From Deltaproteobacteria bacterium (GTDB taxonomy: Bacteria; Desulfobacterota; Binatia; UBA9968; JAJDTQ01): a stretch of 64,000 bases of DNA. Where the stretch lies: assembly GCA_028821115.1 (NCBI GenBank), contig JAPPHF010000144.1, positions 105 through 64,104 of the forward strand. The letters are read 5' to 3'. Below, in pieces: positions 4,651 to 64,000 of this stretch (position 1 is the stretch's first letter; each line of letters begins with the position of its first letter). The translations under genes were made by a program, and so were the position numbers. The notes below the pieces were generated by a model. It made no database searches. It was not told the DNA's origin and worked only from the letters and a program-made list of their open reading frames with translations.

Positions 4651-4690
4651 GTCGTCGATACCTGCCTGGTGGCTGTCCGTTGTGAGATGC

Positions 4691-5068
4691 CTAGCTCTTC
4701 ACCCACTCCAGGTCGCCCTTGCACCAGTCGTAGATGAGGCCCAGGAACACGATGAGGGTGAAGACGGCGATGGCGCCGAACGCGAACAGTCCCGCGTCGT
4801 TCTGAAGCCAGTCGCGGAACACGACCGCCACCGGGAAGATGAAGGCGATCTCCACCTCGAAGATGATGAAGATCAGGGCGATGAAGTAGAACCGGACGTT
4901 GAAGTTGACCCACGCGCTCCCGGACGCGGGCTCGCCGCACTCGTAGGTGGAGAGCTTGCGGAGCTGGGGATTGGAAGGCCGCAGCAGGCGGCCGATCAAC
5001 AGGTTGACCCAGACGAAGGCCGCACCCAACAACGTAAAAACCAGCACGCTGGCGAAGTCAAAAAGCAT
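4691..5068 (-). CDS. nuoA: NADH-quinone oxidoreductase subunit A
   Basis: 125 aa with 3 TM helices and NuoA/ND3 sequence (YECGE...FDVEIAFIFP-like). Only 40 nt separate it from nuoC, so there is no nuoB. Confidence 0.88.
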   Translation of the reverse strand: MLFDFASVLVFTLLGAAFVWVNLLIGRLLRPSNPQLRKLSTYECGEPASGSAWVNFNVRFYFIALIFIIFEVEIAFIFPVAVVFRDWLQNDAGLFAFGAIAVFTLIVFLGLIYDWCKGDLEWVKS

Positions 5069-5252
5069 GGTTCCTCGGGTAAGATAAAGAAATCAATAAT
5101 TTTTTGCAGACGGTCACTATATACACAAAAGCCGTTGCCGGTCAACAAACCGGCCCCTGCTCCCCGCCGGCATCCTTACACTGCCCAACCATTCCTGTTA
5201 CCTTATCCCGTGGCCGGCGTCGACCGGCACGACACGGGAGAGATCGAACGCC

Positions 5253-6245
5253 ATGGCAAGAGTAAGCATCACCGTCGCCTGCTGGGACTATGACCGTACG
5301 CGCCCCTTGCAGGAGGGCCGCGTTCCGGTGGAAGGGGTCGACCTGACCTACCTGCCGTTCCGCGTGGAGGAAACCTTCTGGCGCATGCTGCGCTACCAGG
5401 ATTTCGACGCCGCCGAGATGTCCATGGGCTCCTACATGATGTCCCGGGACAAGGGCACGCCGCGGTTCGTGGCGATCCCGGTGTTTCCCTCCCGCGCGTT
5501 CCGGCACTCCGGCATCTACATCCATACCGGCTCGGGAATCAAGGAAGCCGCCGACCTCACGGGCAAGCGGGTCGGCGTCCCCGAGTACCAGATGACCGCG
5601 GCCATCTGGCAACGCGGCATCCTGCAGCACGAGTACGGCGTGGATCTCGAGAAGGTGAACTGGTTCACGGGCGGCGAAGAGACGCCCGGACGGGAGGAAA
5701 AGCTCCGTCCCGACCTGCCCGAGACCCTCTCCATCACCCCCATCGGCCCGGACCAGACTCTCTCCTCCATGCTGGAGAGCGGCGACATCGACGCGCTGAT
5801 CTCGGCCCACATGCCGTCGCCTTTCGTGCGTCGCTCGCCCAAGGTGGCGCGGCTGTTCCCGGACTTCCGCTCAGTGGAGGAGGATTACTTCCGGAAGACG
5901 GGAATCTTCCCCATCATGCACACCGTGGTCTTCCGGGAGGACGTGTACGAGTGCCATCCCTGGGTAGCACAGAACCTCTACAAGGCCTTCTGCGAGTCCA
6001 AGCGGCTCTGCGCGGAGGCCATGTACGAATACTCCGCGCTCAAGTACATGCTGGCCTGGTCCGTCGAGCAGATGGAGAAGGAGAAAGAGGTCCTGGGACC
6101 GGACCCCTGGGCCTACGGCCTGGAAGCCAACCGCAATGTCCTGGAGACGCTGGTGGGCTACGCCCACGAGCAGGGCCTCACCAAGCAACTGCTCGATGTC
6201 GACAGCCTGTTCGCGCCCAGCACGCTGAACGAGTTCAAGGTGTAG
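5253..6245 (+). CDS. NMT1/THI5-like periplasmic-binding-fold protein of the 4,5-dihydroxyphthalate decarboxylase-like family
   Basis: The N-terminus ITVACWDYDRTRPLQEGRVPVEGVDLTYLPFRVEETFWRM matches the PhtD-like family as I recall it. It is a 330-aa cytoplasmic protein. Confidence 0.55.
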   Translation: MARVSITVACWDYDRTRPLQEGRVPVEGVDLTYLPFRVEETFWRMLRYQDFDAAEMSMGSYMMSRDKGTPRFVAIPVFPSRAFRHSGIYIHTGSGIKEAADLTGKRVGVPEYQMTAAIWQRGILQHEYGVDLEKVNWFTGGEETPGREEKLRPDLPETLSITPIGPDQTLSSMLESGDIDALISAHMPSPFVRRSPKVARLFPDFRSVEEDYFRKTGIFPIMHTVVFREDVYECHPWVAQNLYKAFCESKRLCAEAMYEYSALKYMLAWSVEQMEKEKEVLGPDPWAYGLEANRNVLETLVGYAHEQGLTKQLLDVDSLFAPSTLNEFKV

Positions 6246-38624: not shown

Positions 38625-39488
38625 CTATACGTTCCCCATCATCATGCTGGTGATGCGCTCCAGATCGTCCTGTGAATAGTACTCGATTTCCAGCTTCCCC
38701 TTGTCGTCACTGGCCCTATGCATGAGCCTCACCCGGGTGCCGAGTCGGCGCTGCAATGTTTCGACCAGGTTCGACAGGTCGGGATCCAACCGGTCGCTCG
38801 ACTTGACGCGCCTCGGCTTGTTCAATCTCCGGACCAGGGCCTCCGTATCGCGCGTCGAAAGGTCCTTGCCCATGACCTCGCGCGCCGCCGCCGGCAGCAT
38901 CGACTTGTCGCTGAGCCCCAGGAGCGCCCGGGCCTGGCCGGCGGCCAGCTTGCCGGCGGCCACGTGCTCCTTGATCTGGTCTGGCAAGGACAGAAGTCTC
39001 AGCCCGTTGGCGACCGCCGACCGGCTCCGGCCCACCTTCTCGGCCACCTGTTCCTGGGTCAGGTGGAACTGCCCCTGAAGCTCGGCGAACGCCGCCGCCT
39101 CCTCGATGGGGTTGAGGTCCTCACGCTGGAGGTTCTCGATCAGGGCCAGCAGCAACGAGTTCGGGTCGGGCGTTTCATGAATGATAATAGGTACTTCCGA
39201 GAGCCCGAGCCTGCGCGCGGCGCGCAACCGGCGCTCTCCGGCGATCAGTTCGTAACCGGTGGTCGTGGTCCGGACAACCAGGGGCTGCAGCATACCGCTG
39301 GCCTCGATGGAGCTGGCCAGCTCGTCTATCTTCTCATCGTCGAAAACCTGCCGCGGCTGGTTCGGGTTCGGGACGATCAACGAGGGGTGGACCGACGTGG
39401 GGGCGGTCTCCTGTTGAGAATCCTCCACGACGGGTTCGCTCCCCGGAAGCAGGGCATCCAGACCCCGGCCCAGTCTATTCTTTTGCAT
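38625..39488 (-). CDS. parB: Chromosome partitioning protein ParB (Spo0J)
   Basis: ParB N-terminal GERRLRAA box and HTH. Confidence 0.92.
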   Translation of the reverse strand: MQKNRLGRGLDALLPGSEPVVEDSQQETAPTSVHPSLIVPNPNQPRQVFDDEKIDELASSIEASGMLQPLVVRTTTTGYELIAGERRLRAARRLGLSEVPIIIHETPDPNSLLLALIENLQREDLNPIEEAAAFAELQGQFHLTQEQVAEKVGRSRSAVANGLRLLSLPDQIKEHVAAGKLAAGQARALLGLSDKSMLPAAAREVMGKDLSTRDTEALVRRLNKPRRVKSSDRLDPDLSNLVETLQRRLGTRVRLMHRASDDKGKLEIEYYSQDDLERITSMMMGNV

Positions 39489-40257
39489 GGCTTGACTCCT
39501 TTCGCCCCATCAATTCGGCCGCGAGACCGAGATAGCTCTGGGCTCCCGTCGAGCGGGCGTCGTAGAGCAGCACCGGCCTTCCGTGGCTGGGACTCTCGCT
39601 CAGACGAACGTTTCGGGGGATGACGGTCTCGAAGACGGCTTCGGGGAAATGGCCGCGAACGTCTTCAGCCACTTGAGCGGAGAGATTGCTGCGGCCGTCG
39701 TACATGCAAAGGACCACCCCTTCGAACTGGAGGTGTTGATTGTACGAGACCTGGACGCGTTTCATGGTGTCCAGCACCGCGGTGAGGCCTTCGAGAGCGT
39801 AGTACTCGCACTGAAGCGGTACCAGCAGGGAATCGGCCGCCGCCAACGCATTGAGAGTGAGCAAGCCCAGGGAAGGGGGGCAATCCAGCAGGATGTAGTC
39901 AAACCGGTACCGCACCGTCTCCAGCGCTTGTCTCAGGCGCCCGATACGGTTCTCCATGTCGATCATGTGAATTTCGGCGCTGACGAGGTCGCGGTTGGCG
40001 GGCAAGAGGAACAGCGTGGGTATCTCCGTGGCGCACAGCGCCTCGGTGACGAAACAATTCTCGAGCATCACATCGTAGATGCTCTTGTTCAGAGACCTCG
40101 GATCGACCCCGAAACCCGTTGTGCAATTACCCTGCGGGTCCATGTCCACGATCAGGGTCCTCTTCGCAGCGTCGGCCAGGGACGCGCCCAGGTTCACCGC
40201 CGTGGTTGTCTTCCCGACCCCCCCCTTCTGGTTGGCTATGGCGATAATTTTACCCAA
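39475..40257 (-). CDS. parA: Chromosome partitioning ATPase ParA (Soj)
   Basis: Deviant Walker A KGGVGKTT and a 260-aa ParA sequence. Confidence 0.92.
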   Translation of the reverse strand: MGKIIAIANQKGGVGKTTTAVNLGASLADAAKRTLIVDMDPQGNCTTGFGVDPRSLNKSIYDVMLENCFVTEALCATEIPTLFLLPANRDLVSAEIHMIDMENRIGRLRQALETVRYRFDYILLDCPPSLGLLTLNALAAADSLLVPLQCEYYALEGLTAVLDTMKRVQVSYNQHLQFEGVVLCMYDGRSNLSAQVAEDVRGHFPEAVFETVIPRNVRLSESPSHGRPVLLYDARSTGAQSYLGLAAELMGRKESSHAKE

Positions 40258-40338
40258 AAGTCTTTTATTTTCAAAAAGTTATGAATCTTATGCCGTTACT
40301 GTTTCTTAGCATTTCCGAACACGGAAAGGAAGGCCGAT

Positions 40339-40354
40339 GTTTCACGTGAAACAT
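40339..40354. promoter_or_regulatory. parS centromere-like site (TGTTTCACGTGAAACA), intergenic between parA and rsmG
   Basis: Perfect 16-bp palindrome matching the canonical parS consensus tGTTtCACGTGAAAca. It is embedded in the 18-bp palindrome ATGTTTCACGTGAAACAT. Confidence 0.85.
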
Positions 40355-40398
40355 GAACCGGCTGTTGTGACACGCGGCCAAGCCCGCTGAGAATACGA

Positions 40399-41079
40399 CT
40401 AAGTCTTACGGAAAGTCAGCACGGTCCTTTGTTCTCCGCCGAACGGCAGCTCGAAGTGGCTGCTTTCCCCTTCGGTGAGTCCGTAACCGGAGATGCATGC
40501 TCGGAGCTCATCCAATAAAGTCATGCCTTTCGGTCCATGCATAACTACGGCCATTCCGCCCGGACCCAGCAGTTCCGCACTGGCCTTCAGAAACCCGGGA
40601 ATATCCGAGAATCCGCGTGTAACCGTCTCCCTCATGGACGGCAACGGCTCGGCGGACAGATCCTCCATGCGCCTCTCGATGACATGCACGTCTGCAAGCT
40701 GCAACTCCCGGGCGACTTGTCTCAAGAAGTTCGCGCGCTTACGGCGCGGCTCCACGAGATGGACAGCCTTGCCGGGGAGCGCAAGCTTGATGGGAATGCC
40801 CGGGAAGCCCGCACCGCTGCCGACATCCAGGATTCCTCCATCACCGCTCAGAAATGGGACAATGGAAAGCGAATCGACAAAGTGGCGACGGACGACGAGT
40901 TCGGGGTCCCGGATGGAGGTGAGGTTCAGGCGCCGGTTCCAAAACGTGAGAAGGTCGAGATACTGGCGGAAGGGGTGGATTTGATCCGGCGACAGTTTGA
41001 CACCAAACGCCCTGGCGCCAGCGACGAGGAGTTGCTCGTTGGTGGCTCCGTCGTCATTTGGCACCTTCCGGGAGACCAT
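40399..41079 (-). CDS. rsmG: 16S rRNA (guanine527-N7)-methyltransferase RsmG (GidB)
   Basis: SAM-binding motif (LDVGSGAGFPGIP) and GidB-family sequence. Confidence 0.9.
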   Translation of the reverse strand: MVSRKVPNDDGATNEQLLVAGARAFGVKLSPDQIHPFRQYLDLLTFWNRRLNLTSIRDPELVVRRHFVDSLSIVPFLSGDGGILDVGSGAGFPGIPIKLALPGKAVHLVEPRRKRANFLRQVARELQLADVHVIERRMEDLSAEPLPSMRETVTRGFSDIPGFLKASAELLGPGGMAVVMHGPKGMTLLDELRACISGYGLTEGESSHFELPFGGEQRTVLTFRKT

Positions 41080-41115
41080 GAGCGCCTGAGCAGTAATTGA
41101 CGGGCCCCTGTCCGC

Positions 41116-43014
41116 TCAGCCCGCCTTCATCTTGTACACGTAAAGGGAAAGCACCGAGATAGCGGCCGGCGTCACACCCGAAATCCTGTAGGCCTGCCCC
41201 AGCGACCGCGGCCGCACGTGGGTCAACTTTTCCTTTATTTCACGGGAAAGTCCGTTGATCTTGCCGTAGTCCAGGTCGTCGGGGAGCGATACGTTCTCCA
41301 TCCTCTGGAAGCGCTTGAGGCCCTGGGCCTGCCGCTCCACGTAGCCGCTGTACTTGATCGACACCTCCGCCTGCAGGGCCACGTCGGCCGGCACATCCGC
41401 CAACTCGGGACAGAAGACTGCCAAATCCGCGAATGCTATCTCGGGACGCCGCAACAGTTGGGCCAAGGATGTGATGTTTCGGATGGCCGCGGTCTTCAGA
41501 GCGTCAAGCCGGACCTGGACCGATCGCGACGGATTGATGCGCGTGCTCTCGAGCTTTTCGGCGAGCTCGTTGATCCGGCCCTGTTTGCCCGTGGTCCGCG
41601 CATGCGCCTCTGGAGTGGCTAGGCCGATCCGGTAGCCCAGTTCCGTGAGGCGTAGATCGGCGTTGTCCTCCCGCAACAGCAAGCGATACTCGGCGCGGGA
41701 CGTGAACATCCGGTAGGGCTCGCCATCCGTTCCCTTGGTTACCAAATCGTCAATCAATACGCCGATGTACGCCTGGTTCCGGGACAAGACGAGGGGCTCT
41801 TCCCCGCGGATGCTCAGGACCGCATTGATGGCCGCCATGAGGCCCTGGCTCGCGGCCTCTTCATATCCCGTCGTTCCATTGATCTGGCCGGCCAGGTAGA
41901 GACTGTCAATGGCCTTCGTCTCCAACGTCGGCTTGAGTTGTGTCGGCTCCACGTAGTCATACTCGATGGCGTAGCCGGGCCTCATGATCTCGGCTTCTTC
42001 CAGGCCTTCGATGCTGTGGACCAGGTCCACCTGGACATCGAGCGGCAGGCTGGTGGAGATGCCGTTGGGATAGACCTCGACCGTGTCGTATCCCTCGGGC
42101 TCAAGAAAAATCTGGTGCCTCTGCTTGTCCGCGAACCGTACCACCTTGTCCTCGATAGACGGGCAATAACGGGGACCGCGGCTCTTGATGACTCCGGAGT
42201 ACATGGGCGAGCGATGAATGGCCGCCTGAATGATCTCGTGAGTCCCGGGGTTCGTGTAGGTGATGTGGCAGGGGATCTGCCGCTGCTCGATTCGTTCCGT
42301 TCCAAATGAGAACGGGATGGGGTTCTCATCGCCGTGCTGAACCGAAAGCCTCGAATAATCAATAGTATGGGCGTTCAACCGTGGACATGTCCCGGTCTTG
42401 AGGCGGCCCAATCGAAGGCCCAGCGCGCTCAACGAGCCGCTCAGCCCCTGGGCCGCGAAATCCCCGGCACGGCCGGCGGAGAAATTGCGGTCGCCCACGT
42501 GGATGACGCCCTGGAGAAACGTCCCCGTCGTCAGAATGGTCTTTTTCGCCTCGAATACTTCCCCGATCTGGGTTTCGACACCCAAGACCTGGCCGTCACC
42601 GCAGACGAGGGCTTCAACGCTGCCTTGCTTGAGGGTCAGATTCTCGCAGTTCTCCACCACCCTCTTCATCCGCTGACGGTAAAGCGCCTTATCCGCCTGA
42701 GCGCGGGACGCCCTGACAGCCGGACCCTTTTTCGTGTTCAACATGCGGAACTGGATCCCGGTCTCGTCGATGGCCAGGGCCATCTCGCCGCCAAGGGCAT
42801 CGATCTCCTTGACCAGATGCCCTTTCCCGATGCCGCCAATGGCGGGATTGCAGGACATCTGTCCGATGTGATCGAGGTTCAGCGTCAGCATCAACGTCTC
42901 GAAACCCATGCGGGCGGCCGCCAAAGAGGCTTCAATACCTGCGTGTCCGGCCCCGACAACGATCACATCGTAGACCTTCCCTTTCCGTATATCCGACTGT
43001 TTCACGTGAAACAT
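41116..43014 (-). CDS. mnmG: tRNA uridine 5-carboxymethylaminomethyl modification enzyme MnmG (GidA)
   Basis: FAD motif (YDVIVVGAGHAGIEAS) and a 632-aa MnmG sequence. Confidence 0.95.
   Translation of the reverse strand: MFHVKQSDIRKGKVYDVIVVGAGHAGIEASLAAARMGFETLMLTLNLDHIGQMSCNPAIGGIGKGHLVKEIDALGGEMALAIDETGIQFRMLNTKKGPAVRASRAQADKALYRQRMKRVVENCENLTLKQGSVEALVCGDGQVLGVETQIGEVFEAKKTILTTGTFLQGVIHVGDRNFSAGRAGDFAAQGLSGSLSALGLRLGRLKTGTCPRLNAHTIDYSRLSVQHGDENPIPFSFGTERIEQRQIPCHITYTNPGTHEIIQAAIHRSPMYSGVIKSRGPRYCPSIEDKVVRFADKQRHQIFLEPEGYDTVEVYPNGISTSLPLDVQVDLVHSIEGLEEAEIMRPGYAIEYDYVEPTQLKPTLETKAIDSLYLAGQINGTTGYEEAASQGLMAAINAVLSIRGEEPLVLSRNQAYIGVLIDDLVTKGTDGEPYRMFTSRAEYRLLLREDNADLRLTELGYRIGLATPEAHARTTGKQGRINELAEKLESTRINPSRSVQVRLDALKTAAIRNITSLAQLLRRPEIAFADLAVFCPELADVPADVALQAEVSIKYSGYVERQAQGLKRFQRMENVSLPDDLDYGKINGLSREIKEKLTHVRPRSLGQAYRISGVTPAAISVLSLYVYKMKAG
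42999..43014. promoter_or_regulatory. Second parS site (TGTTTCACGTGAAACA), overlapping the mnmG start codon
   Basis: Identical 16-mer. The mnmG N-terminus MFHVKQ is encoded by the parS sequence itself. Confidence 0.85.
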
Positions 43015-43106
43015 CCTTCTCTGACTTTCCGATCAATACCCCGATTGTGCCAAATTTCCCGGCGAACCACCATGCGCCGCACCAAACAAGTTGGTCGCCG
43101 TCTCCT

Positions 43107-44474
43107 TTACTTCCCAATACAGAACTGAGAAAAAATCCGATCCAGGATGTCGTCGTTGGTCACGGTGCCGATTATTTCTTCCAGGCTATCCCGGGCCTCC
43201 TGCAAGTCCACGGCGACGATATCCGGCGGCATACCCTGATCGACGGCGTGATGAACCTCCACCAGGCTGGCCCGGGCCCGCTCCAGGGCGGCCTTGTGGC
43301 GAACGTTGGTTACGACCACCTCCGGCTCTTCCGCGGAATCCAGAAAGCACTCACGGAGGGCGTCCTTCAACATGTCCAGTCCCTGCCCGGTCAGCGCCGA
43401 GACCTCAATCTGCCGTAAATCGGTCAAGCGCGTAGAAACGGCAGACCCGTCGAGCTTCCGCGGCAGATCGGACTTGTTGACGACCACCACCCCCGGCCGA
43501 TCGCGAACCCTCTCGATCACATCCAGGTCTTCCGCGGCAAGCGGCGAGGACCCGTCAACCACCAGCATGCACCCCTGGCTCTCCTCGAGCCGCTTGAGCG
43601 TTACGTCGATGCCGATCTGCTCCACGCCTTCCGTCCTGTCCCTGATGCCGGCGGTGTCCCACAACACCACGGGCAAACCGTTGAGGTTGACGGTTTCCTC
43701 GATGAAGTCCCGGGTGGTCCCGGGGGTCGCCGTGACAATCGCCCGATCCACGCCGAGCAGGGCATTCAACAGGCTCGATTTGCCGACATTAGGCCGCCCG
43801 ACGATGCACACGCGCACGCCCTCGCGAATCAGGCGCCCCCATTCGTAGCTGTCCACCAGAGCGGAGATCCGGTCAATGACACCGGCGACCTTGCGGCTCA
43901 ACTCCTGACGCTGGAGCAGCTCGATCTCTTCCTCCGGAAAGTCGATGGCCGCCTCCACTTGCACCAGAGTATCCACGAGCTGTTCCCGCAACTCCTGGAC
44001 CTCCTGGGACAAACCGCCTTCCATCTGGCCCAACGCCACACCGGCGGCCTTGTCGGTGCGTGACCGGATCAGATCCAGCACCGCCTCGGCTTGGGCCAAA
44101 TCCAACCGTCCATTCAAGAAAGCTCTCTTGGTGAACTCACCGGGATCCGCGTGCCGGGCACCACGCCCAAGCGCCAGACCGAGCACCTGACGGACGACGA
44201 CAGGACCTCCATGGCAGTGGATCTCCACGGTATCCTCACCCGTGTAGCTCCTGGGCTCCCGCAGGAAGGCGAACATCACCTCGTCGACCACCGACCCGCC
44301 ATCCGGATCGCAAACCTTCCCGTAGTACAACCGGTGCGATTCCCAGTCGACGTCCCCGCGGGAGAGGATCTCCGTGCCGATTCGCCTGGCGTCGGGACCG
44401 CTCAATCGCACCACGGCCACACCCCCTTCACCCGGGGGCGTCGCCACCGCCGCTATGGTGTCTGCCTCGTACAT
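43107..44474 (-). CDS. mnmE: tRNA modification GTPase MnmE (TrmE)
   Basis: Start trimmed to MYEADTIAAVATPPGEGG. G-domain GRPNVGKSSLLN and the C-terminal CIGK motif. Confidence 0.93.
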   Translation of the reverse strand: MYEADTIAAVATPPGEGGVAVVRLSGPDARRIGTEILSRGDVDWESHRLYYGKVCDPDGGSVVDEVMFAFLREPRSYTGEDTVEIHCHGGPVVVRQVLGLALGRGARHADPGEFTKRAFLNGRLDLAQAEAVLDLIRSRTDKAAGVALGQMEGGLSQEVQELREQLVDTLVQVEAAIDFPEEEIELLQRQELSRKVAGVIDRISALVDSYEWGRLIREGVRVCIVGRPNVGKSSLLNALLGVDRAIVTATPGTTRDFIEETVNLNGLPVVLWDTAGIRDRTEGVEQIGIDVTLKRLEESQGCMLVVDGSSPLAAEDLDVIERVRDRPGVVVVNKSDLPRKLDGSAVSTRLTDLRQIEVSALTGQGLDMLKDALRECFLDSAEEPEVVVTNVRHKAALERARASLVEVHHAVDQGMPPDIVAVDLQEARDSLEEIIGTVTNDDILDRIFSQFCIGK

Positions 44475-44645
44475 CCGTCTTTTCGGAATCTTGACTGCGT
44501 TGACTGCGCCGGCGCTGCCAACGATCATTATATCCTATTCGGCCCGGTCTTGCGTCCAAGCCCGACAACCCCCCAGTTGACGTCGTGCGGCGTATTCGCC
44601 TCCTGTGGAAAACTGTGCTAAATACCCGATTCGGATAGGAATGCC

Positions 44646-45704
44646 ATGAGCCAAACCACCGACGACCTGAGAATCGAAACCTTGCGCCCGCTGTTGCCGC
44701 CGATGATCCTGGTGAACGAGGAATTGCCGATTACCGAGCAGGCTACCGCCACAGTCACCAAGGCACGCCAGGAGATCGAGGCGATCCTTGAAGGCCGTGA
44801 CCGGCGGCTACTGGTGATCTCCGGCCCGTGCTCCATCCATGATTCGGACGCGGCTCTCGACTACGCGGGCCGCTTGAAAGAGCAAGCCGACCGCCTGGCC
44901 GAGGACCTGCTGATCATCATGCGCGTCTACTTCGAGAAACCGCGCACGACCGTCGGCTGGAAGGGCCTGATCAACGACCCGGACCTCGACGGCGGGTTCA
45001 ACATCAACAAGGGACTGCGGCTCGCCCGGGGCCTGCTGCTGGATTTGGCCAACATGGGCCTGCCCGCGGGGTCCGAGTTCCTGGACACCATCACTCCGCA
45101 GTTCACTGCCGACCTGGTCTCATGGGGCGCCATCGGCGCGCGCACGGCCGAGAGCCAGGTGCACCGGGAGCTGGCCTCCGGACTGTCCATGCCCGTCGGT
45201 TTCAAGAACGGCACCGGCGGCTCGATCCAAATCGCCATCGACGGTGTGCGCGCCGCGCGGCACCCGCACCATTTCCTCGGCGTCACCCATCAGGGTATCG
45301 CCGCGGTAATCTCAACCTCGGGAAACGAGAGTTGCCACGTCATCCTGAGAGGTTCCAACGGCGGCTGCAACTTCGAGCGCGCCGTAGTAGGCGAAACCGC
45401 GCGGACGCTCCGCGACGCCAACCTTCCGCATCGCGTGCTCGTCGACTGCAGCCACGGCAACAGCCAGAAAGACTACACGCGCCAACGCGAAGTCTGCGTC
45501 GACGTCTGCGAGCAGGTAGCCTCCGGTTCCGACAACATCTGCGGCGTCATGATGGAAAGCCACCTGGTGGCGGGGCGCCAGGACATCAAGCCCGACACGC
45601 CACTCACCTACGGCCAGAGCGTCACCGACGCCTGCATCGACTGGGAAACCACCGTTCCCATGCTTGAACAACTGGCCCGGGCCGCGGCCAAGCGGCGCTC
45701 CTGA
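44646..45704 (+). CDS. aroG: 3-deoxy-7-phosphoheptulonate (DAHP) synthase, class I alpha
   Basis: Close colinear resemblance to enterobacterial AroG (DDLRI..LLPP, KPRTTVGWKGLINDP, DxxHxxS region). Confidence 0.9.
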   Translation: MSQTTDDLRIETLRPLLPPMILVNEELPITEQATATVTKARQEIEAILEGRDRRLLVISGPCSIHDSDAALDYAGRLKEQADRLAEDLLIIMRVYFEKPRTTVGWKGLINDPDLDGGFNINKGLRLARGLLLDLANMGLPAGSEFLDTITPQFTADLVSWGAIGARTAESQVHRELASGLSMPVGFKNGTGGSIQIAIDGVRAARHPHHFLGVTHQGIAAVISTSGNESCHVILRGSNGGCNFERAVVGETARTLRDANLPHRVLVDCSHGNSQKDYTRQREVCVDVCEQVASGSDNICGVMMESHLVAGRQDIKPDTPLTYGQSVTDACIDWETTVPMLEQLARAAAKRRS

Positions 45705-45708
45705 GATC

Positions 45709-47898
45709 TCAGGGGCTCTCCACGATCTCGAGGGCAGCGTCATCGAGGCCCAGCGATTCGAGCACCGGACCAAAGTACCCCGCAAAGCTGCTCGTCACGG
45801 AGCCGTCGACGATCAGACGCTGGTCGTCGCCGCAATGGATAACAAGGGCATCCGCCAAGGGACGTGACAATCGGCTTAAACGAATCTCGTCTTTCAGGTA
45901 GGTACTCGACTCGCCGTCGTCGAGTGAGAGTTCCTCCTTCGGAACATCCCCGACAACAACCCGGTCAGCAAACAGGAGCACCCAGCGCGCCCGCGCGTTG
46001 CCGGACGACGCCTCGAACACCGCGACGGCCTCGTTCCGACCGTCGGCAGTGACGACGCGGTCTGCCGGCGCAGGGAATTCCTGGGTGCCGATCTGCCGCA
46101 GGATAGCCGGCGCCGACCCTGACGGGACGGTCGACAGCCTCCCGTGCTTCAGGCGATCCCGCAACCGCGACTCCACCGCCTTCAGATATCGCGACCAGAG
46201 CGCAGTGACCTGCTTACGCTCCGTGAGCAACACCGAAGCATTGAACAGCACCATATGGTCGTGTTCGACCGGCCAGTCCTCCGCCGCCGTTGTCGCCAGC
46301 AGATCGACGAAGGACGCCATCAATGGTTCGGCGAGCGGGTCTCCGATCAGATCCCGCGGGGGCTCGATCAAGTATTGCTCACTTTCCGCAACGCGGTCCG
46401 ATTCAGGGCCACTATCGTCGAAGGCGATCGGCATCGCCTTCTCCAGCAGCACGCGGTTCACGTCGACATCGCCGATACGCTTGCGCGCGGCCACGGCGAA
46501 CGCACTGCCTTCGATCACCTGCCGTGCTTCCTCGATGTCGAGCCGGCACCAGTCGCGGGCAAGCATCGCGAGTTGAATGAATCCCTCCTGGATGCGCATC
46601 TCCTCGCGGCGGCCGGCGCCGATCAGATCGACCTGCAGACCGATCGACAGCGCCTTTTCCATTTCCTCAATCGCCTGGCTGGCCTTCGTCTCATTCAATC
46701 CACGCATTTCCCGCAGGATCTCGCCGAGACATCCGGCAATCGCCTGGCGCTGCGCGGGGCGCAAGGACGCGAAGTCGATGGACGGCGTCAGCGTGGAGTC
46801 CGGTTCACCGTCGGCGGCGAGCGCGCGCAGCAGCGCCAACTTGGCGAACTCGTCCGGAATCTGCGCGCGCAGAATGCGGTCCGACAGGAGCTTGCGGTTG
46901 TGGTCGATGCCCGGAACCAGATTGTGAATGCGAAGCGCCTCGACGAGCCCCAGCCAGTCGGCGCTCCGATACGTGCGGCGCGGATCGTATGCGCCCGCCA
47001 CCTGCAGGTAGACCAGCGCGACGGAACCTTCCAGGAGTTCCTTTAGCCAGGCCTCGGCGTAAGTCTTGACGACGTGCTTGCCGACCCGCGACAATGCCTC
47101 CCCGGCGAGAACCGACGCCGCCAGCGTAATCGGGTTCGCACCGAGGGCAATGCGAGCGGCCAGCGTCGCGCCGCGCACATAATGCTGCCAGGGAGTGTAC
47201 ATCCGGTAGAGGTTACGCGCCTTCTGCACCTGTTCGAGCCGCGTCACGACTTCTCTTACGGTCCACCCCGTGACGTTGAGGACCGGCACCTGCTGCGCCA
47301 CCTGGAGGAGGTCGCCGATGGCGGACCGTCCGGCCAACGCGATATCACCGATGCGCGCATCGAGTTCCGCCTTCTCGGCATCCTGCCCGTATAGCCGAGC
47401 GACTTCCTTCACAACGTCGCGGAATTCCTCGAAAATGATGCGGCCATCGATGCCCTTGATCTCTCCGTCCTCTTGCTTCACGTAGCGACGGTCGCGGATA
47501 CCATCCCAGACGCGGTCACAGCGAGCCTGGATCATTCTCCCGAGTTGAGCGTCCAGCTCCGGCGCCGGCCCGTCCGGTTCGGAGCCCTGCGACCGCTGGA
47601 GCGCACTCCAAATCTGTTCCACCGGCGACACGCCCTCAGCGAGCCAGCGTTTCTCAACCTCCCTCCGATCGCGCTCACGCAGTCCGTCGATGTGCTGCTC
47701 AATCTCCGTGACAAGCCCTTTGTCAACGGCAGCGGAGCGTGTGAGGCCCACCGAGAAACCCAGCGCACCGGCGCCGAGCAAGGTGACGGCGATCCCCAAC
47801 TCCACCGAGAGCAGGAAGAGGAGAGCGACCCCGGCGACCGTGACGCCGCATCCAGCGACCAACCAGCCGACGGACGCGCTCATTCGGATCAGTCGCAC
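45709..47898 (-). CDS. Hypothetical membrane-anchored protein (two N-terminal TM helices plus about 650 aa of helical cytoplasmic domain)
   Basis: Long clean ORF with normal codon usage. No motif recognised. Confidence 0.55.
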   Translation of the reverse strand: MRLIRMSASVGWLVAGCGVTVAGVALLFLLSVELGIAVTLLGAGALGFSVGLTRSAAVDKGLVTEIEQHIDGLRERDRREVEKRWLAEGVSPVEQIWSALQRSQGSEPDGPAPELDAQLGRMIQARCDRVWDGIRDRRYVKQEDGEIKGIDGRIIFEEFRDVVKEVARLYGQDAEKAELDARIGDIALAGRSAIGDLLQVAQQVPVLNVTGWTVREVVTRLEQVQKARNLYRMYTPWQHYVRGATLAARIALGANPITLAASVLAGEALSRVGKHVVKTYAEAWLKELLEGSVALVYLQVAGAYDPRRTYRSADWLGLVEALRIHNLVPGIDHNRKLLSDRILRAQIPDEFAKLALLRALAADGEPDSTLTPSIDFASLRPAQRQAIAGCLGEILREMRGLNETKASQAIEEMEKALSIGLQVDLIGAGRREEMRIQEGFIQLAMLARDWCRLDIEEARQVIEGSAFAVAARKRIGDVDVNRVLLEKAMPIAFDDSGPESDRVAESEQYLIEPPRDLIGDPLAEPLMASFVDLLATTAAEDWPVEHDHMVLFNASVLLTERKQVTALWSRYLKAVESRLRDRLKHGRLSTVPSGSAPAILRQIGTQEFPAPADRVVTADGRNEAVAVFEASSGNARARWVLLFADRVVVGDVPKEELSLDDGESSTYLKDEIRLSRLSRPLADALVIHCGDDQRLIVDGSVTSSFAGYFGPVLESLGLDDAALEIVESP

Positions 47899-59633: not shown

Positions 59634-59865
59634 TACGTGGGTGGCGCGAGGTTGTCAATGGGAGTTGCATCCGGTTCCCTCGGCGGCGCACCTGGACTCC
59701 CGCCCGCGAACCACTGTCCGACCTTCTTTCACTTTCCTGTCAACGACCGGAGAATTTCCCGAGCTGAAACGAAAAAAGGTTGGCTCAGGCTAAAGAAAGC
59801 GGATAAGATAACGATCAATAAAATATGACCATGGAATCGGGGCCGAGAGGGTTGTCGCCGGCCCT

Positions 59866-60231
59866 ATGACAAAGGCCGTTCAGGCAGCAGAAGGAGCCTG
59901 GCAAGAAATGAACGCAGAAACGATCAGCATTATCGTGTCCGTGGTAACCGTCGGCGCGGCAGTCGGAACCCTCACAATGATGGGCACCAGGCAACTGCGC
60001 CAAGACATGGACCGACGCTTCACCGAACTGCGTGACGACATTCGTGAAGTACGACACGATGTGAGTGAAGTGCGACGTGACGTGAATGCCCTGCGCGAGG
60101 CAGTAGGGATTCTAAAGGAGGCCGTAGCGTCTTTGAAGGAGGCAGTGGGGTTTTTGAGAAAGGATGTAGGGTCCCTGAAGGAGGAGGTGGCCGCTCAGAA
60201 AGAGCGGAGTGGGACTGCGGCTGCGAATTGA
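59866..60231 (+). CDS. Small membrane-anchored coiled-coil protein encoded by seven tandem 21-nt (heptad) repeats
   Basis: TM (ISIIVSVVTVGAAVGTLTMMG) followed by EVRHDVS/EVRRDVN/EAVGILK/EAVASLK/EAVGFLR/KDVGSLK/EEVAAQK. It sits in a lower-GC, AT-rich-flanked segment. Confidence 0.5.
   Translation: MTKAVQAAEGAWQEMNAETISIIVSVVTVGAAVGTLTMMGTRQLRQDMDRRFTELRDDIREVRHDVSEVRRDVNALREAVGILKEAVASLKEAVGFLRKDVGSLKEEVAAQKERSGTAAAN
60046..60201. repeat. Tandem 21-nt repeats (about seven units) inside the coiled-coil gene
   Basis: gaggcagtagggattctaaag / gaggccgtagcgtctttgaag / gaggcagtggggtttttgaga ... seen directly. Confidence 0.8.
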
Positions 60232-60475
60232 TATGAGACGCAGGGAACAAATCGCGGAACGCACAGACCGGGGCGCGACACCGAAACAGCGCTGACGGAG
60301 GTGCTCGCTCATGTACGTGGCGAGGCGAATCTTTCTTACCGAATCGTGTACGATCCTTGGCTGAACAGTTTGTCCCCTTCGGAAGCGACCGCAAACCGGG
60401 AATCTGCCGTCATCGGTCCAGCGACGAACTAGACAGGCGACGCCGACGAGGGCAGCAGACGCCACTCTAAACGGC

Positions 60476-63400
60476 TCAACCCGCCACCACTTTACCCGCC
60501 TGATACAGCCACCCCGGCATCGGGCGTTCAAGTTCCCACAGTATTTTCATCGGGCGTTCGGATTCATGCCTACGGTAACGGGCAAGACCGAGGCAGTGGT
60601 ACGGGAGGGTTTCACCGCGACCATCCTTCTTTCGCTCGCGCACGAACAGGATAACATTCGTGCCCCGAGTCGGCTGTTCAACATAGCGGCGCCCAGCGGG
60701 CGTGTCGGGTGATGCGCTGTTTTGCGACTCCCAGTGGAACAGCGTGGGGGAGATCGGGTAGTCAGCATACCGGGTCGTTGGGGAGTAGTCCGCGTCCGAT
60801 TTCTCGAGCGTAACGAAGAGCAGATCCGTCTGGGTCATTTCATCCCAGAGAACTCCGCCCTGCGGCACCACAAGCTTGCCACTCTTTGTTGTTCGAGCAT
60901 ACGCCGCCACGATCTCGCCGAGCGTATAGGTCGCGTGGCTCGCAAGAGGGACATCGCTCGCAACGTCAAGGAATTGCGACACAGTACGAATTCGGTCAGC
61001 CAGTATATCGATGAGATCAATAACTTCTCGACGCAACGCCGCAAATTCCCGGACCCGGTCAAGGAACCCATCGACTCCCGTGTTCGATTTACTGCCGACG
61101 CCCAGGATGGCGAACAACATGAGGCCTAGACGATAGTCGCGCCCGCGGAGTCCTGAAATCGGCTTGGGGCCATCCCCTTCCAGAATTGCCCGCCACGCGC
61201 CGAGCCTCTCGCGATCATCCACGTGAAGCAGTCGGCCGATGGCCCGCAAGAGAGGATCACCGGTGCCCAATAACGCGGTGTTCTGAACGAAGCCCGCCCT
61301 CTGGTGAAGCTCTGTGAAGCAGTGTCCCGTTCGGGGTTGTGCGTAAATCTCCTCGAGTTCAACGCCCGCTTTACGCATGAAATCCCCAAGCCGCGTCTCG
61401 GGGCCAAGGGCGCGCAGATCATCGGCGAGGCGTGCGCGGCTGTTCTGCACAGCTTCGCGTAGATTGTGCAACACCGTGTCTTTTGCGATCCGGTCGAGCT
61501 TCAGAGCGCATCCCGGTGGCAGAAGTGGGAAGTCCGCCTCCACGGCCCGCCGGATTTGGTGACGCGTGCCGCCCAGTAAAGCCCGGTAACGTATGTCATA
61601 GCGATACTCGCGCCGTACTTGGCCAACGAGGTCGAGCACGGTCAACACCCGCTTTCCCGCCGTCCATCGTAACCCCCTACCAAGCTGTTGGAGAAATACG
61701 GTGGCGCTTTCGGTCGGCCGGAGCATGAGCACGGTGTCAACCTCAGGTAGGTCGACACCCTCGTTGAACAGGTCAACGGCGAAGACAGCACGAATCTCTC
61801 CCCGACGCAGTCGCGTAAGCGCCGCACGACGATTCTCTGTCGGGGTGCTACCGTCAAGGGCCACCGCCGGATAGCCGAAACGGGTGAACTCCCTTGCCAT
61901 GAAGTGCGCGTGATCGACGCCTGCGCAGAATCCCAGAGCCCGCATTTGGCGTGGGTCCGTCACGTATTCGGTTACGGCGTCACGAATTCGGAGCGCGCGA
62001 GCGTGATCGCCGGTGAGCACATTATCCAGGTCGTTTGGCACATATCTCCCACGCTCGAAACGCACCGTCGAAAGATCGGTCGCATCGTTCACACCGAAGT
62101 AGTGGAAGGGACAGAGCAGTCCCTGGTCGAGCGCGTCCCAAAGACGCGATTCCGACGCGATGCGGCCGTCAAACCAATCGAGTACGGACTGGCCGTCGGC
62201 GCGTTCGGGCGTAGCGGTTAACCCGAGCAGAACCTTCGGTTTCAGGCGCGACAGGAGGCGCTCGTAGCTCGCGGCTGCCGCATGGTGAAACTCGTCGACG
62301 ATGACAACATCGAACCCGTCGGGTTCGATGTCGTCGACTCTATTGACGAGCGACTGCACCGAGGCAAACACATAACGACCTGACTGCGGGCGCTCACCGC
62401 GGATCAACCGCTCACCAAACCCCGGTTCGCCCAGTACGAGCTGGAAGACTTGTTGGCTTTGACGAAGAATCTCGTCGCGGTGCGCGACGAAAAGCAACGA
62501 TTGCCCCATACCCTGGTCACGCAATCGTTTGAAATCAAAAGCCGCGATCCAAGTCTTACCGGTACCGGTTGCCGCGACCACCAGATTGCGGCGATGCCCG
62601 CGCAGGCGCTCGGATTCGAGCGCCTCGAGCGCAACCGCCTGGTGGGGCTTCGGCCAGACGTCGACCAAGAGCGAAAGCGCGGTGTCGTCCGGTCTACCGC
62701 CGTGACTCTGTCTCGACAGCGCGTGGTCGAGTCGTCTGGCATCGCGTTCAGGTGTATAGTCCTCGAATTCGGGTTCCTGCCAGTATTGTTCGAAGGTGGC
62801 TTTGAAGCGCTCGATGACCTCAGGATTCTGGACTGCACTCACACGCACGTTCCATTCGAGTCCCTCAATCTGCGCTGTGTGGGTGAGGTTCGACGAACCA
62901 ATGTAAGCGGTATCCAGGCCACTGGCTCGGTGGAACAACCACGCTTTGGCATGGAGGCGTGTCCGCGCGATCTCGTACGAAACCTTTACTTGGGCACCGA
63001 GTGCGACCAGAGCATCGAGCGCGCGGCGTTCTGTCGAGCCAGTATAGACACTCGCAATCACCCGTACTTGCGCGCCTTCCTGTACTCGGGTCTCAAGCTC
63101 GGACCTAAACAACCGTAACCCGGAGTGACGCACGAACGCACATAGAAGATCGATTCGATCGGCGCTTGGAATCTCCCGCGCAATCTCACTTGCAATCTGA
63201 ACGTCGCGCCGCCCGTTGACGAGGAGACCGGTTCGACGGAGAGATAGTGTCGGGCGGGGGAGTGGCGAGGGCGTGCCCGCCAGTCCACGATGTTCGAGAA
63301 CCTCAAGGAGCAACCGTGCAGCCCCTGCGACTCGGTCGTCATGCACTGCACCATACTCGAAGAGGATTTCTACCAGCCGATTTACAAGGGTGATCTGGTC

Positions 63401-63610
63401 AGTGACCTGTCTGGCTCCCTCGCCCGGTACCGCTTCCAGCGCACGCCGAAGGAGTCCATATACGTGACGAGCCAAATGCTCGGGGCGCGCGGTTGCATCC
63501 GCCCAGCGGACATCCGCTCGCCAGCCCTCTTCGGTCCGGGCTGCTATCTCCGCCTCCAGAGCAGCGGTTAGCAGGTCCTCGTAGAGCCCGGGACGAAGCG
63601 GTCGCGTCAT
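60476..63610 (-). CDS. PLD(HKD)-family nuclease + SF2 DEAH-box helicase + C-terminal DUF3427-like domain protein (about 1044 aa)
   Basis: HKD-type motif LHAKAWLFHRASGLDTAYIGSSNLT. Helicase motif I is AATGTGKT, motif II is VIVDEFHH, motif III is LGLTATPER, and motif VI is QQLGRGLR. A long C-terminal domain follows. The start was moved to MTRPLRPGLYEDLL (63610), because the longer ORF start at 63754 overlaps the upstream HNH gene in another frame. Confidence 0.8.
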   Translation of the reverse strand: MTRPLRPGLYEDLLTAALEAEIAARTEEGWRADVRWADATARPEHLARHVYGLLRRALEAVPGEGARQVTDQITLVNRLVEILFEYGAVHDDRVAGAARLLLEVLEHRGLAGTPSPLPRPTLSLRRTGLLVNGRRDVQIASEIAREIPSADRIDLLCAFVRHSGLRLFRSELETRVQEGAQVRVIASVYTGSTERRALDALVALGAQVKVSYEIARTRLHAKAWLFHRASGLDTAYIGSSNLTHTAQIEGLEWNVRVSAVQNPEVIERFKATFEQYWQEPEFEDYTPERDARRLDHALSRQSHGGRPDDTALSLLVDVWPKPHQAVALEALESERLRGHRRNLVVAATGTGKTWIAAFDFKRLRDQGMGQSLLFVAHRDEILRQSQQVFQLVLGEPGFGERLIRGERPQSGRYVFASVQSLVNRVDDIEPDGFDVVIVDEFHHAAAASYERLLSRLKPKVLLGLTATPERADGQSVLDWFDGRIASESRLWDALDQGLLCPFHYFGVNDATDLSTVRFERGRYVPNDLDNVLTGDHARALRIRDAVTEYVTDPRQMRALGFCAGVDHAHFMAREFTRFGYPAVALDGSTPTENRRAALTRLRRGEIRAVFAVDLFNEGVDLPEVDTVLMLRPTESATVFLQQLGRGLRWTAGKRVLTVLDLVGQVRREYRYDIRYRALLGGTRHQIRRAVEADFPLLPPGCALKLDRIAKDTVLHNLREAVQNSRARLADDLRALGPETRLGDFMRKAGVELEEIYAQPRTGHCFTELHQRAGFVQNTALLGTGDPLLRAIGRLLHVDDRERLGAWRAILEGDGPKPISGLRGRDYRLGLMLFAILGVGSKSNTGVDGFLDRVREFAALRREVIDLIDILADRIRTVSQFLDVASDVPLASHATYTLGEIVAAYARTTKSGKLVVPQGGVLWDEMTQTDLLFVTLEKSDADYSPTTRYADYPISPTLFHWESQNSASPDTPAGRRYVEQPTRGTNVILFVRERKKDGRGETLPYHCLGLARYRRHESERPMKILWELERPMPGWLYQAGKVVAG

Positions 63611-63650
63611 GCCTCGTCCCGGCTGGAAGGAACCGGCAAGAGCCTTGGCA

Positions 63651-64000
63651 TCACCCGAGATAAACCTCTGAGTTGTGCCATTCCAGGAACTCGCGCCTTG
63701 GGTGATCCGTTGGCCGGTCGGGTAGGTTTGCCAGCGCCTTGTCGGCAAGTTCATAGTATATGCGGCCGTTCTCGAATTCCTCGCGTAGTCTCGAGCTCAC
63801 CACGAAACGAAGGGCGGGGTCGACAGTCACGTAGCCGTCATCGAACAGCCTATGAATATCCGCACGTAGTAGAAGTCCGTTCTGGGTACGATTAGGACCC
63901 GCGGCCGCATGTGCCTTGATGTGCGCTGCCTCCAGGGCAGGAAGGCTCCGCTCGGCTGTAACCGCACAGCGCCGGTGATACGCATCGGCAACAAGCGTCC
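63651..64000 (-). CDS. HNH endonuclease (HNH_2-like), C-terminal part. The gene continues beyond the window.
   Basis: Reverse-complement frame gives ...CAVTAERSLPALEAAHIKAHAAAGPNRTQNGLLLRADIHRLFDDGYVTVDPALRFVVS... (H-N-H motif). The stop TGA is at 63651-63653, 40 nt upstream of the helicase start. It is missing from the ORF track because it is edge-truncated. Confidence 0.7.
   Translation of the reverse strand, partial: TLVADAYHRRCAVTAERSLPALEAAHIKAHAAAGPNRTQNGLLLRADIHRLFDDGYVTVDPALRFVVSSRLREEFENGRIYYELADKALANLPDRPTDHPRREFLEWHNSEVYLG

Follow-up and report, generated by a model that had tools for sequence, protein, structure and literature searches.

A SauUSI-like restriction gene and a PUA-like–HNH gene share a small, horizontally acquired islet in a high-GC bacterial genome

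The stretch of bacterial DNA analyzed here, 64,000 nucleotides in length and referred to as the window, ends in a small, horizontally acquired islet of about 4.2–5 kb, which very probably encodes two restriction endonucleases, each sufficient by itself and directed at modified rather than unmodified DNA, and is an ordinary islet, not a new system. Judging by its sequence, the larger of the two genes belongs to the characterized SauUSI family of restriction enzymes directed at methylated-cytosine DNA. The smaller one (the HNH gene) is cut by the end of the window, and the model of its product combines a reader of the PUA superfamily (ASCH/EVE-like) with an HNH nuclease, as in modification-dependent endonucleases of the VcaM4I type. 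An earlier note on this DNA had described the locus as a candidate uncharacterized defense system, a two-gene nuclease module residing in a segment of suggested horizontal origin; the defense role, the nuclease content and the foreign origin are supported by our analysis, whereas neither the novelty of the system nor an obligate module is.

The whole open reading frame of the large gene spans positions 60476–63754 of the minus strand, and its likely start is the ATG at 63610, which is preceded by GGACGAGG and yields a product of 1044 amino acids, identical to the database protein P0001. Pfam and motif inspection (DEFH, H220-x-K222) agree with the initial description of this protein as a combination of an HKD-type PLD motif, the helicase motifs I, II, III and VI, and a DUF3427 domain (Table 1). 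The catalytic H220-x-K222, encoded at 62945–62953, is followed by GSSN, and H220, K222 and the segment G238–T243 are invariant among 50 homologues. The same holds for all of the helicase motifs in the subfamily alignment (A1, 50 homologues), namely ATGTGKT (Walker A, motif I, at 62552–62575), DEFH (motif II, at 62285–62296), TATP (motif III) and QQLGRGLR (motif VI). In the AlphaFold model of the full-length protein, which is of moderate confidence (pLDDT 64.8), residues 703–873 are all-helical and lead into a beta-rich domain; the position of this helical region matches that of the coupler domain of SauUSI, residues 618–805 (PMC7913695). Within the DUF3427 region the pLDDT is mostly 70–90, and this domain is expected to be SRA-like in its fold and to flip out a modified cytosine. 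At the other end of the protein, the N-terminal extension is modeled as four helices with low to moderate confidence.

Table 1. Features of the islet and its flank, in window coordinates
Feature	Position	Strand	Basis or detail
Low-GC islet flank with AT-rich stretch and 121-aa ORF (59866-60231, plus)	59634..60475	.	GC 0.572
Large gene, SauUSI-family Type IV restriction endonuclease (predicted), 1044 aa	60476..63610	-	Profile, PDB and fold matches
DUF3427 target-recognition domain, aa 858-1037	60500..61039	-	Pfam, E 3.4e-19
Helical coupler, ATPase to target-recognition domain, aa ~670-857	61040..61603	-	AlphaFold, position
Second RecA lobe, Helicase_C, aa 547-649, with motif VI QQLGRGLR	61664..61972	-	Pfam, E 6e-16
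First RecA lobe, SF2 helicase-like ATPase, ResIII, aa 320-470	62201..62653	-	Pfam, E 6e-34
PLD-type nuclease domain, PLDc_2, aa 169-277	62780..63106	-	Pfam, E 1.7e-8
N-terminal extension, ~118 aa, predicted helical	63257..63610	-	Alignment starts, AlphaFold model
Spacer of 40 nt, HNH stop to large-gene start	63611..63650	-	Ribosome-binding site GGACGAGG at 63612-63619
3' end of PUA-like (ASCH/EVE-like) + HNH endonuclease gene, last 115 codons and stop	63651..64000	-	

The assignment of the large protein to the SauUSI family is based on both sequence and fold. The PADLOC profile PDLC03659 ('mREase_IV') matches it with 831 bits over profile positions 16–940 of 945, as compared to 105 bits for the second-best PADLOC family. 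Its best solved relative by sequence is SauUSI (PDB 7clg, E 5.7e-82), and the same structure is the top Foldseek match (E 7e-33, 940 aligned columns) and the sole one over the whole length, the next matches covering the helicase core only (~380 columns). The PLD–helicase–DUF3427 architecture is the one published for SauUSI (PMC3141236, PMC6765204, PMC7913695), and since the protein matches a named family for which a PADLOC profile already exists, the proposal of an uncharacterized system can be set aside as a false lead. Taken by itself, the helicase core resembles those of RadD, type I HsdR and XPB (NCBIfam RadD, 95 bits; PDB 6jde, E 4e-22), which would fit a housekeeping helicase-nuclease of repair or recombination, of the RadD or XPB kind, rather than a defense enzyme. 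However, these matches are confined to the helicase core and far under the cut-offs (95 versus 720 bits), and this explanation leaves the PLD and DUF3427 domains, as well as the whole-length match to SauUSI, unaccounted for. Furthermore, the foreign codons of the gene, its patchy spread across phyla at ~80% identity and the presence of AbiE and other defense genes in its neighborhood are the behavior of a mobile defense gene, and we consider a housekeeping role extremely unlikely. Identification of the large protein as PbeA, type I HsdR, RadD or a Cas3-like protein was rejected, the matches in each case being to the helicase core only.

SauUSI and the large protein are alike in being single polypeptides with the same order of domains (PLD nuclease, linker, SF2 ATPase, helical coupler, DUF3427), and they are ~21% identical in the structural alignment. 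The H119 and K121 of SauUSI (PMC7913695) align with H220 and K222, whereas the acidic residue of the H-x-K-x4-E motif, E126, corresponds to H227 in the large protein. The pocket of SauUSI that accommodates the flipped 5-methylcytosine consists of Y831, F841, I842, D858 and W868 (PMC7913695). The last four of these residues align with F932, V933, D950 and W960 of the large protein in a local alignment that scores only 8 bits, and F932, D950 and W960 are invariant or nearly so in the family; by ungapped extrapolation only, the positions of Y831 and M829 would be taken by W922 and V920. A further difference is the N-terminal extension, which is missing from both SauUSI and the PADLOC profile (residues before 129 are outside the alignment with the former, and residues before 119 outside the latter) and is conserved within the subfamily alignment. 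The two proteins also differ in their hosts, SauUSI being from Staphylococcus aureus, a Firmicute, and the large gene from a high-GC MAG deposited as 'Deltaproteobacteria bacterium'. These comparisons document a branch of the SauUSI family that is divergent, of high GC and endowed with an extra N-terminal extension.

Other restriction enzymes share parts of this architecture. NgoAVII and CglI, like the large protein, join PLD nuclease and helicase-like ATPase for ATP-dependent cleavage (PMC7913695), but they are R2H2 complexes made of two subunits, recognize DNA through a B3-type domain and form part of R-M systems that include a methyltransferase, whereas the large protein has all its domains in one chain and a DUF3427 reader. 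McaZI and YenY4I, which are DUF3427 + PD-(D/E)XK/DUF3883 fusions, have the DUF3427 reader in common with the large protein and are found in defense islands (PMC6765204) but, unlike it, contain neither a helicase nor a PLD domain and are ATP-independent. No methyltransferase gene is adjacent to the large gene, the neighbors being the HNH gene, an SDR gene, a small coiled-coil ORF and an acyl-CoA synthetase gene, and a crude regular-expression search of all frames of at least 200 aa in the 64-kb window detected no C5-methyltransferase motif IV. Within the window, the large gene is a solitary restriction gene without a cognate protective methyltransferase at its locus.

The HNH gene terminates with the stop codon at 63651–63653 and, in line with its original description as an HNH_2 gene located 40 nt upstream on the same strand, this stop lies exactly 40 nt before the ATG of the large gene. 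The remainder of the gene lies beyond the window end and, if the coordinates are continued, would extend to about 64556. Searches for sequences identical to the large protein (in its 1044-aa and 1092-aa versions and as P0001) led to no contig; the DNA beyond the window was obtained through the HNH protein P0262, and the full HNH protein, of 301 aa, was taken from L163, a contig identical to the window. A search with the 115-aa fragment returned only proteins of up to 200 aa, many of them fragments, and missed the full-length family, so the search was redone with the full protein from the relative L064. The family comprises over 7900 proteins of ~300 aa, and no single neighbor gene predominates beside them. 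Pfam detects an HNH_2 domain (E 2.5e-13), of which AAH-IK...QNG...IHRLFD is readable in the visible part of the gene, and H212, N226 and H235 are invariant among 50 homologues, so that the catalytic H...N...H arrangement is intact. The HNH domain aligns with that of VcaM4I, which is the sole PDB match of the family profile (E 4.7e-14) and also the top Foldseek match of the protein, over both domains.

The N-terminal domain of the HNH protein matches no Pfam family and is structurally closest to ASCH, less so to EVE or SRA. The characterized enzymes VcaM4I and TspA15I (EVE-HNH) and TagI and ScoA3IV (SRA-HNH) have the same two-domain plan and a similar total length, their EVE and SRA readers contrasting with the Pfam-less, ASCH-closest reader of the HNH protein. 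The latter may be nearer to the ScoA3V group, which has been described as 'distantly PUA-related' and is stimulated by 6mA (PMC6765204). Annotation as a 'phosphorothioated DNA-binding restriction endonuclease' (NCBIfam NF045808) was rejected, as this model matches the HNH half only (positions 162–283) with 71–78 bits, under the 180-bit cut-off, and the sulfur-binding domain is not covered.

On the basis of the mechanism described for SauUSI (PMC3141236, PMC7913695, bioRxiv 10.1101/2025.10.16.682607), the large protein would be expected to dimerize through its PLD nuclease domains, while its C-terminal DUF3427 domain would flip out and recognize 5-methyl- or 5-hydroxymethyl-cytosine. This recognition would turn on the SF2 ATPase, and the enzyme would then translocate along the duplex and cut repeatedly at a distance, with the result that modified foreign DNA is shredded. 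We infer the modification dependence of the large protein, its target specificity and the identity of the modified base from homology. The HNH protein, for its part, would cleave close to a modified base to which it has bound and would not require ATP, like VcaM4I, TspA15I and TagI. Together, the two enzymes would restrict a broader spectrum of modified invader DNA, with neither needing the other; if they are characterized, their specificities could serve as reagents for mapping modified bases.

No terminator is predicted in the 40-nt spacer, which makes it probable that the two genes are co-transcribed; a scan for promoters and terminators yielded nothing above background. We considered as a regulatory element a hairpin that would sequester both the start codon of the large gene and the ribosome-binding site in front of it, but rejected it, because it is no better than in shuffled sequence (z −1.6) and is not kept in relatives.

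Conservation of the HNH–helicase pair, which the view of a two-gene module implied, is not observed. Of 75 genome loci that carry a close homologue of the large gene, a single one has the HNH gene upstream, and 73 show no trace of it; the remaining two (L001 and L002, from one genome, the closest relative) retain a deletion remnant, in which 819 nt of the HNH gene have been lost in frame next to an intact SauUSI-like gene of 1045 aa. An AbiE toxin-antitoxin pair occupies the upstream position in 23 of the 75 loci. In nearly every locus, DNA homology to the window breaks off where the large gene begins and ends. Inheritance of the two genes together is limited to one small subclade, comprising the window, L164, L064, L083, L165 and, in a decayed form, L078–L082, which have a split HNH gene and a SauUSI-like gene without its helicase. 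Given the single paired locus, the end of homology at the gene borders and the lack of a dominant neighbor of the HNH family, an obligate two-gene system was rejected. The large gene travels by itself, as a single-gene unit, among MAGs from many phyla, some of them bearing sponge-associated taxon names, beside a variable partner, which can be AbiE, the PUA-like–HNH gene or nothing. Seen from the side of the HNH gene, 6 of the 9 contexts sampled from close relatives have a SauUSI-like gene immediately downstream, and divergent partners have become adjacent, sporadically and independently, in reversed order in the unrelated low-GC organisms L120 (with a 31-nt gap) and L105. A SauUSI-like or DUF3427 neighbor is found in 5 of the 65 HNH-family metagenome loci with usable flanks, and some close HNH homologues have a NOV_C/DUF3883 nuclease gene after them or no nuclease gene at their side. 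The pairing is facultative, with both gene orders recurring in a minority of HNH-family loci, and looks like defense-island clustering, although the frequent downstream position and the reversed pairs indicate linkage above pure chance and hence the possibility of some functional interplay.

It is conceivable that the PUA-like–HNH and SauUSI-like proteins form one cooperating two-component Type IV system, in which complementary readers feed one cleavage or HNH nicks load or trigger the translocase. Such cooperation would be compatible with the close spacing on the same strand without a predicted terminator, with the co-inheritance, in part in decayed form, in the small subclade, and with the divergent pairs and metagenome neighbors just described. 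We nevertheless consider it unlikely, because SauUSI on its own is active both in vitro and in vivo (PMC3141236, PMC7913695) and PUA-HNH enzymes of like architecture are active alone (PMC6765204, PMC7897488), and because the large gene persists intact after deletion of the HNH gene, is usually found with no trace of it and often with AbiE in its place, while HNH homologues occur with another nuclease gene or with none. Should the tightly spaced, recurrent pairing, in both orders and across unrelated lineages of high and of low GC, reflect real cooperation of two Type IV enzymes after all, an outcome to which we assign a low probability, the Pfam-less N-terminal reader would define a new modified-base specificity. 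Two readers of different modification specificities might then, for example, act on the same invader, or the translocating PLD nuclease might enter, or be triggered, at HNH nicks.

The decay in L078–L082, the loss of the HNH gene in L001 and L002, and the calling of no more than 113–145-aa fragments for several close HNH homologues on long contigs would also be in keeping with both genes being decaying relics that encode no active enzymes. In the window and the identical L163, however, both frames are complete (1044 and 301 aa), and every catalytic motif is intact and invariant, which makes this explanation very unlikely.

The foreign origin of the islet is apparent from its composition. The GC content of positions 59634–64000 is 0.599 versus 0.651 for the remaining window, and that of the AT-rich stretch at 59760–59830 is 0.394, in agreement with the lower-GC segment, running from ~59.7 kb to the end, that the earlier note had pointed out. 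The large gene has a GC content of 0.605, a value so low that only 2.7% of gene-sized windows elsewhere match it, and the contrast with the remaining window becomes much sharper at third codon positions: GC3 is 0.652 in the large gene, 0.612 in the visible part of the HNH gene and 0.598 in the ORF at 59866–60231 (0.60–0.67 for the islet genes), compared to roughly 0.84–0.95 in most other long ORFs of the window. Signatures of mobility were not detected: there is no integrase or transposase among the adjacent genes, the islet borders lack convincing repeats, whether direct or inverted, and the window contains no tRNA genes or Rfam matches. The 121-aa product of the ORF at 59866–60231, which has a foreign codon composition, is predicted to be a membrane-anchored coiled-coil protein and matches no Pfam family above threshold; the same ORF adjoins the large gene in L164, a 94%-identical relative. 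As a caveat, further compositional dips in the window occur at 40–44 kb and in the ORF at 4445–5293.

The locus comprises a SauUSI-family Type IV enzyme beside a PUA-HNH endonuclease, both of known kinds. Translation of the larger gene plausibly starts at the ATG at 63610, which follows GGACGAGG; the resulting product of 1044 aa has the same sequence as P0001, a database entry titled 'MAG: DUF3427 domain-containing protein [Deltaproteobacteria bacterium]' that comes from a 76.2-kb contig. Its PLD nuclease, helicase and DUF3427 regions were all recovered as Pfam domains, and an HNH_2 gene precedes it on the same strand, exactly 40 nt separating the end of that gene from the ATG, so that the description of the two genes in the earlier note was accurate. 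Its view of them as an uncharacterised system was not supported, since a named family was matched. The PADLOC model PDLC03659, 'Type IV methyl-directed restriction enzyme', aligns to the large protein with 831 bits over profile positions 16–940 of 945, the next unrelated model, PbeA, scoring 105 bits. The crystal structure of SauUSI from Staphylococcus aureus (PDB 7CLG) is the best match among all PDB sequences (E 5.7e-82). It is also the first Foldseek match for an AlphaFold model of the protein (E 7e-33, 940 aligned columns), all matches ranked below it being confined to the helicase core; the quality of the model is moderate (pLDDT 64.8 overall, most of the C-terminal third lying at 70–90). 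As judged from sequence and modelled fold, the large gene belongs to the SauUSI family of Type IV enzymes.

Features of the locus, of the window and of the compared loci (positions in the window unless a locus or amino acids are given)
Feature	Position	Strand	Remark
Large gene, open reading frame	63754 to 60476	minus	
PLDc_2	aa 169-277		Pfam, large protein
ResIII	aa 320-470		Pfam, large protein
Helicase_C	aa 547-649		Pfam, large protein
DUF3427	aa 858-1037		Pfam, large protein
HNH_2 gene	stop end at 63651	minus	cut by window end
Candidate hairpin	63586-63620	minus	rejected
121-aa ORF	59866-60231	plus	GC3 0.598
282-aa ORF	4445-5293	plus	GC3 0.618
Broad composition dip	39475-47898		
AbiEi/AbiEii pair	L003:8273-9960		equivalent positions in 22 other loci, e.g. 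L004, L005, L007, L009, L011, L014
~590-aa methyltransferase-domain gene	L064:13143-14918, L165:9080-10849		directly downstream of SauUSI-like gene
Small NOV_C gene (DUF3883, PD-(D/E)XK-type)	L077:8418-9251, L166:5976-6713		downstream of HNH homologue
Variant architecture	L155:854-4395		also in L084; downstream of close HNH homologue

SauUSI-like enzymes are widespread, and in SauUSI itself a PLD nuclease at the N terminus is followed by an SF2 ATPase, a helical coupler and, at the C terminus, the DUF3427 target-recognition domain, which adopts an SRA fold (PMC3141236, PMC6765204, PMC7913695). The domain architecture of the large protein is exactly as published for SauUSI; the differences are an extra N-terminal helical extension of ~118 aa, the replacement of E126 by H227, and a low overall identity. 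The catalytic H220-x-K222, the counterpart of SauUSI H119/K121, is invariant in 50 homologues, as are the GSSN, Walker A, DEFH, TATP and QQLGRGLR motifs. F932, D950 and W960 are conserved and align with F841, D858 and W868 of the SauUSI 5-methylcytosine pocket; because this local alignment is weak by itself, we take such a pocket in the large protein as suggestive only. By homology with SauUSI (PMC7913695; bioRxiv 10.1101/2025.10.16.682607), the enzyme would dimerise via its PLD domains, and recognition of a flipped modified cytosine by the DUF3427 domain would switch on the ATPase; translocation along the duplex, with repeated cleavage at a distance, would then shred the modified DNA. Its modification dependence and specificity are, to this extent, presumed.

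The complete product of the HNH gene was found by a search with a full-length relative: P0262 (301 aa, 'HNH endonuclease [Deltaproteobacteria bacterium]') is encoded on the same 76.2-kb contig as P0001, and its final 115 residues match the fragment in the window exactly. An ENA contig (L163) shares 10,350 nt of identical sequence with the window, reaches 1702 nt past the window end and gives the gene order SDR gene, 138 nt, HNH gene, 40 nt, large gene, the last two presumably being co-transcribed. VcaM4I, an EVE-HNH modification-dependent endonuclease, is the first Foldseek match over both domains and the sole match of the HNH-family profile among all PDB sequences; on these grounds the gene is predicted to encode a reader-plus-HNH fusion of a kind for which autonomous, modification-dependent endonuclease activity has been shown (PMC6765204, PMC7897488). 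Structural matches of the N-terminal domain with lower scores include archaeal McrB N-domains, YTH and TagI. The NCBIfam assignment 'phosphorothioated DNA-binding restriction endonuclease' was rejected, as the HNH half alone matches, below the cut-off. Such a PUA-like-HNH enzyme would recognise a modified base and cleave close to it, independently of ATP.

The lower-GC composition that had been claimed for this segment was confirmed. GC3 is 0.652 in the large gene, 0.612 in that part of the HNH gene which lies inside the window (0.666 in the whole gene) and lower still in the small 121-aa ORF, compared with ~0.84–0.95 in most other long ORFs of the window and 0.87 in the flanking SDR gene just past its end; bulk GC shows the contrast less clearly than third codon positions do. 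The genes of this islet, which sits between the SDR gene and an acyl-CoA synthetase gene, are of foreign origin; the window contains no tRNA gene and no Rfam element, and neither an integrase gene among the adjacent genes nor convincing repeats at the islet borders were found. In the 121-aa ORF one membrane helix is predicted, along with a region of heptad-like repeats (VSEVRRDVNALREAVGILKEAVASLKEAVGFLRKDVGSLKEEV), and no Pfam family exceeds the threshold; its counterpart also adjoins the SauUSI-like gene in L164, a 94% relative. Elsewhere in the window, the 282-aa ORF, which has no Pfam match, is a second compositionally foreign gene, and in the broad composition dip GC falls to 0.57–0.63 over 40–44 kb, and the long ORFs across 39475–47898 have GC3 mostly of ~0.77–0.79 (one 0.85). 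A candidate 11-bp hairpin, in which the ribosome-binding site of the large gene pairs with codons 4–8 (CGGGACGAGGC / GCUUCGUCCCG), was rejected: the local fold is no better than that of shuffled sequence (z -1.6), and relatives do not conserve the pairing.

A two-gene module conserved as a pair was not supported when relatives of the large gene were compared. Among 75 genome loci encoding relatives of the large protein (45–86% identity), an HNH gene lies upstream in one, L064. In nearly all of these loci DNA similarity to the window starts and stops within a few bases of the start and stop of the large gene, which argues that it travels as a single-gene unit; seen from this side, there is no two-gene module. 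Of the three outcomes that the earlier note had set against its own proposal, a named-family match and unpaired relatives were thus both found, and the third, a composition like that of the flanking genes, was not. In the closest relative (L001/L002, 86% identity), where an acyl-CoA synthetase gene and crcB lie downstream as in the window, an 819-nt in-frame deletion has fused the HNH gene's upstream region and initial codons to its last ~26 codons, while the SauUSI-like gene is intact. In a neighbour-joining tree built without bootstraps the window groups with L002 and L064 in one subclade, which would fit the HNH gene having been captured once. A far commoner partner in the 75 loci is an AbiEi/AbiEii toxin-antitoxin pair (AbiEi antitoxin, AbiEii nucleotidyltransferase toxin), directly upstream on the same strand in 23. 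SauUSI-like genes at ~65–86% amino-acid identity occur in MAGs of many distant lineages (L002–L076), including Alphaproteobacteria, Arenicellales, Thermodesulfobacteriota, Binatia, Latescibacterota, Acidobacteria, Poriferihabitaceae, Chloroflexi and even 'Saccharibacteria', and sponge-associated taxon names are among them. The confinement of DNA homology to the gene points to its recent cross-phylum spread as a single-gene unit.

Seen from the HNH gene, the evidence on a module is less clear-cut. A SauUSI-like gene lies directly downstream of close HNH homologues in six contexts (the window, L164, L165, L064, L083 and L078–L082), the last of which is a decayed cassette with the HNH gene broken into two ORFs (138 and 145 aa) and one PLD and one DUF3427 piece left of the SauUSI-like gene, residues 354–616 (helicase) being missing. 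In L077 and L166 a NOV_C/DUF3883 gene replaces the SauUSI-like gene, so that different second nucleases may be interchangeable at the downstream site; L167/L168 have no nuclease gene there. In the wider HNH family (80 metagenome loci, 65 with usable flanks) there is no dominant single neighbour, and a SauUSI-like/DUF3427 neighbour occurs in five of the 65, two of which (L120 and L105, from low-GC organisms) have the gene order reversed, with a gap of 31 nt in L120. Genuine cooperation of the HNH enzyme with the SauUSI-like enzyme is improbable, and we read their adjacency as the usual clustering of Type IV enzymes in defence islets, plus a lineage-specific linked pair.

Two further arrangements were observed around these genes. 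In one lineage (L064, L165) the SauUSI-like gene is followed by a ~590-aa gene, absent from the window, whose product has a SAM-methyltransferase domain at its N terminus and weakly matches PADLOC 'mad2' (MADS system); a 587-aa gene with a methyltransferase-like domain, present too in L064 and L165, follows the decayed cassette of L078–L082. In L155 and L084 the PLD-helicase protein begins with a HIT-like sequence, as judged by eye, and the region matching DUF3427 is split from it, forming the end of a separate 274-aa protein, an arrangement with the 'specificity domain as a separate protein' that is mentioned in PMC6765204.
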